From the sequence record PP925842.1: a stretch of DNA of 64,000 nucleotides, one strand, 5' to 3'. Below, piece by piece: positions 49,399 to 49,446 of the stretch. This DNA is from Escherichia phage KookSpook. A program made the translations under genes and the position numbers. Numbering within the stretch: position 1 is the first letter of the stretch; every line of letters starts with the position of its first letter. The notes under the pieces are model-generated. The model had not been told where the DNA came from. It saw nothing but the letters and a program-made list of their open reading frames with translations, and did no database searches.

Positions 49399-49411
49399 AT
49401 TTTATTTTTCC

Positions 49412-49446
49412 CAATAAAAAAGGCTCTGGGCAAATCACCCAGAGCC
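49412..49446 (-). terminator. Hairpin plus conserved leader directly upstream of the tape measure start codon
   Basis: Minus strand: GGCTCTGGG-TGATTTG-CCCAGAGCC then TTTTTTATTGGGAAAAATAAAAT then ATG. Confidence 0.6.

Follow-up and report, generated by a model that had tools for sequence, protein, structure and literature searches.

Putative intrinsic terminators joined to weak ribosome-binding sites precede the head-completion and tape measure genes of a T5-like phage

The stretch of Escherichia phage KookSpook analysed here (64,000 nucleotides of record PP925842.1; hereafter the window) derives from a T5-like phage of the genus Tequintavirus in which the late genes are on the minus strand, and all of the features described below are on that strand unless stated otherwise. 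It is a close relative of other Tequintavirus genomes, with DNA identities of 95-98%, and the region of interest matches more than 440 T5-group genomes (Demerecviridae, mainly Tequintavirus and Epseptimavirus) at 84-98% identity. Gene order and gene sizes are those of the T5 late region, with the terminase, portal, protease, major capsid protein (458 aa) and head-completion protein (170 aa) genes followed by those for the tail completion and tail terminator proteins, the tail tube protein (469 aa), a 300-aa tail protein, two chaperone ORFs, the tape measure protein (1226 aa) and the distal tail protein (204 aa). The major capsid gene (54481-55857) is a homologue of the T5 pb8 gene, is described as 'major head protein' in the HdH2, AKFV33 and T5 records, and has tblastn matches in 906 phage records. 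The 170-aa gene (53909-54421) is a T5.148 homologue identified from annotated relatives as the head-completion, or head-tail adaptor, gene, and the tape measure gene (45718-49398) codes for the homologue of pb2.

Upstream of the tape measure gene are the tail assembly chaperone ORFs, the second of which (49482-49850; 122 aa, T5.142 homologue) has no Shine-Dalgarno (SD) sequence, with an anti-SD duplex of only -0.1 kcal/mol. The AKFV33 record states 'No ribosome-binding site' for its homologue, and the Shivani record has a joined (frameshifted) chaperone CDS; the missing SD together with the joined Shivani CDS fits the G/GT-type frameshift of tail assembly chaperones, and the 122-aa ORF is probably expressed only by frameshifting from the 139-aa ORF upstream. 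That 139-aa ORF is at 49912-50331, with a gap of 61 nt between the two.

A string of 23 nucleotides, TTTATTTTTCCCAATAAAAAAGG, is present in two exact copies in the window, one at 54421-54443 (site A) and the other at 49401-49423 (site B). It has no match in dinucleotide-preserving shuffles (0/100), there is no additional copy in the window when up to three mismatches are allowed, and the repetition is real rather than a chance occurrence. A preliminary description of this DNA had reported the same repeat, with the position of the site B copy given one base off, at 49400-49422. It had also placed a different GC-rich hairpin beside each copy, and had read each site as a hairpin, the 23-mer, and then the ATG of the 170-aa gene or of the tape measure gene; both statements are borne out, as each copy adjoins its own GC-rich perfect hairpin on the minus strand (54461-54440 and 49446-49422) and this order can be read directly at both sites.

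Each copy is made up of the last two stem bases (CC), a nine-base U-tract (UUUUUUAUU), GGGA, and an A-rich spacer leading to a start codon. At site A the spacer is AAAAUAA and the final A of the 23-mer is also the A of the ATG (54421) of the 170-aa gene; site B has the same composition, and a further AU (AT in the DNA) separates the 23-mer from the ATG (49398) of the 1226-aa tape measure gene. Site A as a whole runs from the capsid stop codon through a small hairpin (GGCUUUUCAGCC), GAU, AAGGAGAGC-UUCG-GCUCUCCUU, UUUUAUU and GGGAAAAAUAA to the AUG, and site B from the chaperone stop codon through a conserved 32-nt stretch, GGCUCUGGGUG-AUU-UGCCCAGAGCC, UUUUUUAUU and GGGAAAAAUAAAAU to the AUG. 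The U-tract and A-rich spacer are complementary and can pair into a marginally stable AU hairpin (-1.5 and -2.4 kcal/mol) whose loop holds GGGAAA, as any A-rich leader after a U-tract will. The 23-mer is not an element in itself but a composite, in which the 3' part of a terminator runs straight into the signals for starting translation of the following gene.

A terminator scan picks out three hairpins, each with a U-rich tail: terminator A, AAGGAGAGC-UUCG-GCUCUCCUU, at 54440-54461 (-14.5 kcal/mol); terminator B, GGCUCUGGGUG-AUU-UGCCCAGAGCC, at 49422-49446 (-19.1 kcal/mol); and terminator C, downstream of the tape measure gene at 45689-45713 (-15.5 kcal/mol). The stems are 9-11 bp long, and folding z-scores relative to shuffles are -4.4 and -5.3. 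A U-tract follows directly 3' of each stem (UUUUUUAUU at sites A and B, UUUUCUUUAU at site C), and the hairpins begin 19, 35 and 4 nt past the stop codons of the co-oriented capsid, chaperone and tape measure genes, respectively. The sequence attributes of intrinsic terminators – a GC-rich stem-loop, a 3' U-tract, a co-oriented upstream gene, and, for A and B, compensatory change in the stem – are all present. A bidirectional terminator at A or B was rejected, as the plus strand has no U-tract. A Rfam search of the whole window gave no match at the gathering score, and a search of 45400-54700 gave a single match at chance level (E = 0.26).

The three hairpins are already known as putative terminators in public T5-like genome records. 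The T5 record (NC_005859) has a 'putative rho-independent transcription terminator' after each of T5.149 (pb8), T5.142 and T5.140 (pb2), and the HdH2 and AKFV33 records annotate putative rho-independent terminators at the same three sites; positions, hairpins and flanking genes in all three records are the same as in the window. The records mark only the hairpins, however, and none notes the identical tails at sites A and B or the ribosome-binding sites inside them. The locus is an ordinary operon design, and its repeat is a correct observation rather than a new element.

The start sites at A and B carry a weak SD sequence in an unstructured A-rich context. GGGA is 7-10 nt upstream of the ATG, with the segment paired to the anti-SD ending at -7 at site A and at -10 at site B, and at both sites the duplex is -4.2 kcal/mol; most late genes have duplexes of -7 to -11.6 kcal/mol, and values about as weak as those at A and B are also seen for a few other low-copy genes. 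The GGA inside the motif is annotated as the ribosome-binding site of the tape measure gene in the Shivani record. The preliminary description, which had these genes lacking any SD sequence, thus overstated the case. Relatives without GGG after the U-tract have another SD-like purine run nearer to the ATG, including AGAGG (L065), UAGGU (Pantoea phage AAS21), AGGUGA (Enterobacter phage KKP_3711) and GGAG or AGGAGG (Vibrio phages), and this exchange of GG for other SD-like sequences points to a role in translation.

A third, diverged copy of the 23-mer, found in a repeat search (families D10 and D19), is at 45671-45693 and is identical at 19 of 23 positions (83%). The preliminary description was correct in recognizing the likeness, but no start codon follows this copy. 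It is succeeded instead by a sigma-70 promoter, TTGATA-17-TATAAT (45636-45664; scan score 11/12), the homologue of P-G25, which drives the distal tail protein gene, a gene with a strong SD sequence; the site is annotated as 'promoter P-G 25' in the T5 record and as a promoter in the AKFV33 record. The third copy is therefore not a leader: it consists of a U-rich terminator tail and the A-rich, UP-like -43 region of the P-G25 homologue, which it overlaps. A second sigma-70 promoter, TTGACA-17-TATACT (52808-52836; scan score 11/12), lies within the tail-terminator gene, some 180 nt ahead of the tail tube gene, at the site homologous to 'promoter P-J 5' of the T5 record; both hexamers are kept in nine genus-level relatives and the spacer is variable. 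It restarts transcription for the tail tube between terminators A and B. P-G25 and P-J5, which belong to the promoter collection of the Bujard laboratory, are promoters and have no part in the function of the 23-mer at sites A and B.

The arrangement at site C raises the question of whether the identity between A and B is a relic of a duplicated or converted terminator-plus-promoter cassette, with the A-rich part being a UP-like -43 sequence with no translational role. Site C has the same U-rich tail followed by GGAAAAAUAAAAAUUUC immediately before the -35 hexamer of the P-G25 homologue, terminators elsewhere in the window likewise precede A/T-rich DNA and a TTGCT-type -35 hexamer, and an A-rich -43 region is a feature of T5-type promoters (PMC3326045). 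At A and B, however, the ATG follows at once and there is no credible -35/-10 pair within the first codons, and a promoter there would give transcripts without the start codon. A hidden promoter downstream of the motif was likewise rejected at both sites after a promoter scan and inspection, neither of which revealed credible hexamers. Moreover, the substitution of GG by other SD-like sequences in relatives points to translation, and the two copies vary independently, so that conversion is not ongoing. We consider a relic of this kind very improbable.

The preliminary description had suggested searching related phages for the 23-mer, and nearly all of some 30 genomes of Tequintavirus and Epseptimavirus have the motif at both A and B. 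Among the viable variants are GG for GGG, AUUAUUAGG, a run of 13 U residues, and one A fewer or more. Variants at one site (such as GG, AUUAUUAGG and 13 U at site A) are not mirrored at the other, in either direction, showing that the two copies do not evolve in concert and leading us to reject gene conversion between sites A and B. At greater distance, CC-UUUUUU-AUUG is kept at both sites in Klebsiella, Proteus, Providencia, Pantoea and Enterobacter phages and in phage Eos, and the A-rich part drifts. A terminator abutting the next start codon is present in every Demerecviridae lineage sampled, including the T5-like Vibrio phages, which have the same architecture with different tails and a stronger SD sequence (GGAG or AGGAGG). 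In 450-nt alignments conservation peaks in the intergenic cores, above that of the flanking coding DNA, and the head-completion protein is only 30-66% identical across those genera. At four pairs of stem B both bases have changed with pairing maintained; stem A hardly varies across genera and has one compensatory change, GC-to-AU. A small hairpin between the capsid stop codon and terminator A (GGC-loop-GCC; 54465-54476) has an invariant GGC/GCC stem and a variable loop of 5-7 nt among genus-level relatives.

Identity between sites A and B is limited to the 23 nucleotides, and the hairpins (GGAGAGC-UUCG-GCUCUCC versus GGCUCUGGGUG-AUU-UGCCCAGAGCC) are unrelated. The suggestion of a reused hairpin-plus-leader module is thus not upheld, since only the U-tract, the weak ribosome-binding site and the A-rich spacer are common to the two sites. 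Nor does the tail define a wider motif. In scans of viral, bacterial-genome and metagenome collections, a 21-mer of the tail was found twice per T5-like genome together with about 35 scattered matches in unrelated bacteria, some of them within coding sequence; it behaves as low-complexity background, and a motif extending beyond the T5-like phages was rejected. One such likeness is in an unrelated 42.6-kb phage contig, IMGVR_UViG_3300032255_000005 (L151 9480-9560; the same in L155), which has a hairpin (GCCGCUUUUAAGCGGC), an identical 21-mer (UUUUUUAUUGGGAAAAAUAAA) and an ATG that opens the gene for a 639-aa tape measure protein (PHROG 9483), with the upstream gene divergently oriented. Striking as it is, this combination of a hairpin, the 21-mer and a tape measure ATG is probably a coincidence, given the background rate of the 21-mer.

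Hairpin A is similarly not restricted to T5-like phages. The exact 24-mer GGAGAGCTTCGGCTCTCCTTTTTT, comprising the hairpin and U6, is present in at least ten unrelated viral contexts with different flanks (contigs L072-L130), and the idea that it is special to T5-like phages was rejected. With its cUUCGg tetraloop and seven-pair stem it looks like a generic optimal terminator, and its recurrence suggests convergent use, or the spread, of one optimal terminator sequence. At the nucleotide level its invariance exceeds the needs of a generic terminator, holding as it does across genera in which the head-completion protein is only 30-66% identical, and this counts against the explanation favoured below.

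Such conservation could reflect a site formed by the U6-AUUGG(G)-A-rich string and the hairpins for a specific factor co-regulating both genes, for example a phage late antiterminator, a translational repressor, Hfq or S1. CC-UUUUUU-AUUG is invariant at A and B in Markadamsvirinae, Priunavirus and Klebsiella phages, in which the flanking coding DNA diverges, and Providencia phage PSTCR5, in which the adjacent protein is only 30% identical, has 46 nt of site A unchanged. Within the window the motif is restricted to late-region terminators, its tail being absent from eight other strong terminator-like sites, and GGGCGUUCCACGA, upstream of terminator B, is kept even in the Vibrio phages. These observations are offset by the different tails of the Vibrio relatives, by the viability of the GG, AUUAUUAGG and 13-U variants and of T5 lacking the GGGAAAAAUAAA part at site B (owing to an endonuclease insertion, described below), by the generic appearance of hairpin A in its ten or more unrelated phage contexts, and by the low complexity implied by 35 occurrences of the 21-mer in unrelated bacterial genomes. 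No candidate factor was identified, and we regard co-regulation by a dedicated factor as improbable.

T5 differs from the window at site B in having an endonuclease gene, T5.141 (CapR and treble-clef domains, PHROG 681), between terminator B and pb2. T5.141 is inserted right after UUUUUUAUU, which accounts for T5 lacking the motif before its tape measure gene. The T5 pb2 leader reads ACAGGAAAACAUUAG-AUG and differs from that of the window, indicating that the GGGAAAAAUAAA part is dispensable for tape measure expression. The T5 endonuclease gene is at 14960-15772 of L025, corresponding to 95777-96529 of NC_005859, and a related gene lies in the interval that separates hairpin A from the capsid stop codon in three other genomes (L003 9376-9948, L007 and L026). 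The endonuclease genes at the two sites are free-standing and of one family (CapR homology and a treble-clef zinc finger, PHROG 681), and both intergenic sites look, from their occupants, like homing endonuclease hot spots. In the Vibrio phages an additional ORF intervenes between terminator B and the tape measure gene; it has no Pfam match that would mark it as an endonuclease.

Terminator B is preceded by a non-coding element, UUUCCUCCAAU-GGGCGUUCCACGA-UGAGGCUU (49447-49478), which is nearly invariant across genera, with its core being GGGCAUUCCACGAG in the Vibrio phages. The window contains it only once and no Rfam family matches it, and a coding role was rejected as there are 1-nt indels within and between genera. 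The element is predicted to form a local interrupted hairpin that is 91% paired across relatives with one double-sided change. In the manner of a riboswitch-type attenuator with mutually exclusive pairings, this hairpin would compete with a helix, 82% paired, that reaches the distant U-tract and GGGAA; the pairing in these competing helices is mostly of wobble pairs and invariant columns, and site A has no counterpart. Long-range helices from the element to AUUGGG or to the U-tract and GGAA gained no convincing support from covariation, and are broken in KKP_3711 and in Proteus phages.

Folding of this region bears on whether the hairpins act mainly as stabilizers of RNA 3' ends or as processing sites, with polycistronic late mRNA cut by a host enzyme – RNase E acting on the single-stranded A/U-rich tail, or RNase III acting on a longer helix – and gene dosage set by differential decay instead of termination, the hairpin shielding the abundant upstream message from 3' exonucleases. 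RNase E prefers an A/U-rich single-stranded stretch after a stable hairpin, which is the arrangement here, and RNAfold adds about 12 pairs to the site B helix, pairing UUCC-A-CGAUGAGG with UUUUAUUG-GGAA to give a helix of about 22 bp with an internal loop, the extension being 82% paired in 11 relatives. But the extension is mostly of G-U and A-U pairs with one double-sided change, sliding the partner by +1 still leaves 67% paired so that the signal is largely one of low complexity, Enterobacter phage KKP_3711 breaks it, and site A has no comparable extension. A perfect hairpin with a U-tract is, moreover, the signature of termination and does not require processing, and we consider it improbable that processing is the main role of the hairpins.

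The upstream element is not explained by a terminator and a weak ribosome-binding site, and so counts against a model composed of these alone; some novelty remains here and nowhere else in the locus, and the element is a minor lead. On a different reading the A and B terminators, with their invariant CC-U6-AUUG tails and accessory hairpins – GGC-loop-GCC at site A and UUUCCUCCAAU-GGGCGUUCCACGA-UGAGG at site B, the latter kept in Vibrio phages – would constitute a dedicated regulatory RNA module as opposed to plain terminators. A phage late factor might then control read-through, or the upstream anti-SD-like CCUCC might fold onto the U-tract and GGGAA and gate translation or processing of the tape measure message. 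We consider such a module unlikely.

The explanation we favour, and regard as likely, is that hairpins A and B are intrinsic terminators combined with weak ribosome-binding sites, such that read-through sets a low output of the next genes. Terminator A would act after the major capsid gene and terminator B after the block of tail tube and chaperone genes, with the end of each U-tract joined to an initiation region consisting of the weak SD sequence GGGA, an unstructured A-rich spacer of 7-10 nt, and the ATG. The ATGs of the head-completion and tape measure genes are 20-25 nt after the hairpins, and this gap leaves no room for a promoter of its own before either gene. The nearest conserved promoters to them are those at 52836-52808 and 45664-45636. 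Lacking their own promoters, the two genes can be transcribed only by polymerase that has passed a terminator. The head-completion, tail-completion and tail-terminator genes are all between terminator A and the P-J5 homologue, and the tape measure gene is alone between terminators B and C. Since hairpins A and B look like strong terminators by predicted energy and U-tract, the model has to suppose considerable read-through or antitermination induced by the phage; the literature that could be searched yielded neither mapped 3' ends nor read-through values for late transcripts of T5-like phages. Partial termination and a weak ribosome-binding site would together lower output relative to the abundant upstream products.

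The T5 capsid, with T=13 symmetry, contains about 775 copies of the capsid protein, and the tail tube about 120 copies of its subunit arranged as trimeric rings. Structural analysis of the T5 virion shows a tail tube of many trimeric rings and a capsid with 13 subunits per asymmetric unit, together with a dodecameric head-completion protein (12 copies) and a three-stranded tape measure protein (3 copies) (PMC10713586). By virion copy number, the products encoded upstream of the terminators are abundant and those encoded downstream are scarce. The proposal in the preliminary description of an attenuator setting stoichiometry after highly expressed genes thus stands as regards the placement of the hairpins and the promoterless low-copy genes that follow. 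The analysis demonstrates the anatomy of the sites, their conservation across the family, the covariation in stem B and the lack of space for a promoter; that the terminators are leaky, and that this leakiness together with the weak ribosome-binding sites sets the stoichiometry, is what we infer.

There are precedents for such an arrangement in unrelated phages. In phage T7, the intrinsic terminator T-phi lies right after gene 10, encoding the major capsid protein, and expression of the tail and core genes beyond it depends on read-through; the polymerase on which T-phi acts is that of T7, and T-phi is not known to be fused to the ribosome-binding site of the next gene. As in the window, a terminator directly follows the most abundant structural gene. 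In phiX174, mRNA levels are shaped by leaky Rho-independent terminators (TJ, TF, TG and TH) situated after structural genes, with efficiencies of 20-40% for three of them and 70% for TH (bioRxiv 10.1101/2020.03.05.979765). The phiX174 efficiencies are measured values, whereas the terminators in the window are predicted and both the phage and its hairpins are unrelated to those of phiX174.

These features provide a map of late transcription in which the capsid block is followed by terminator A, the neck genes, P-J5, the tail tube and chaperone genes, terminator B, the tape measure gene, terminator C with P-G25, and the baseplate genes, and the analysis explains the presence of a terminator in front of, and a weak ribosome-binding site at, the head-completion and tape measure genes. 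The significance beyond annotation is small, and the map could be of use when T5-like phages are engineered for therapy, for instance in choosing insertion sites; endonuclease genes already use both of the intergenic sites.

Several other observations were made on the window and its relatives. The closest relative of the window (99-100% identity in the segments tested) is deposited as 'Campylobacter phage C13', and a second T5-like fragment as 'Listeria phage LM 4-11-1' (the record pair MG065692.1 / OR846901.1 covering both); the Campylobacter and Listeria host labels on these two Tequintavirus-like records look doubtful. The interval 38739-39507 of the window contains dense imperfect direct repeats, mostly with 21-nt phasing (families D1, D3, D4, D5 and D7). 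On the plus strand, repeats of about 50 nt at 9339-28831 and 62367-62419 (families D2, D6 and D8) contain a TTGCT-type -35 hexamer and a TATAATA -10 sequence followed by AAATTTGAGAG, a composition similar to the consensus of T5-type sigma-70 promoters (TTGCTw N17-18 TATAATA).
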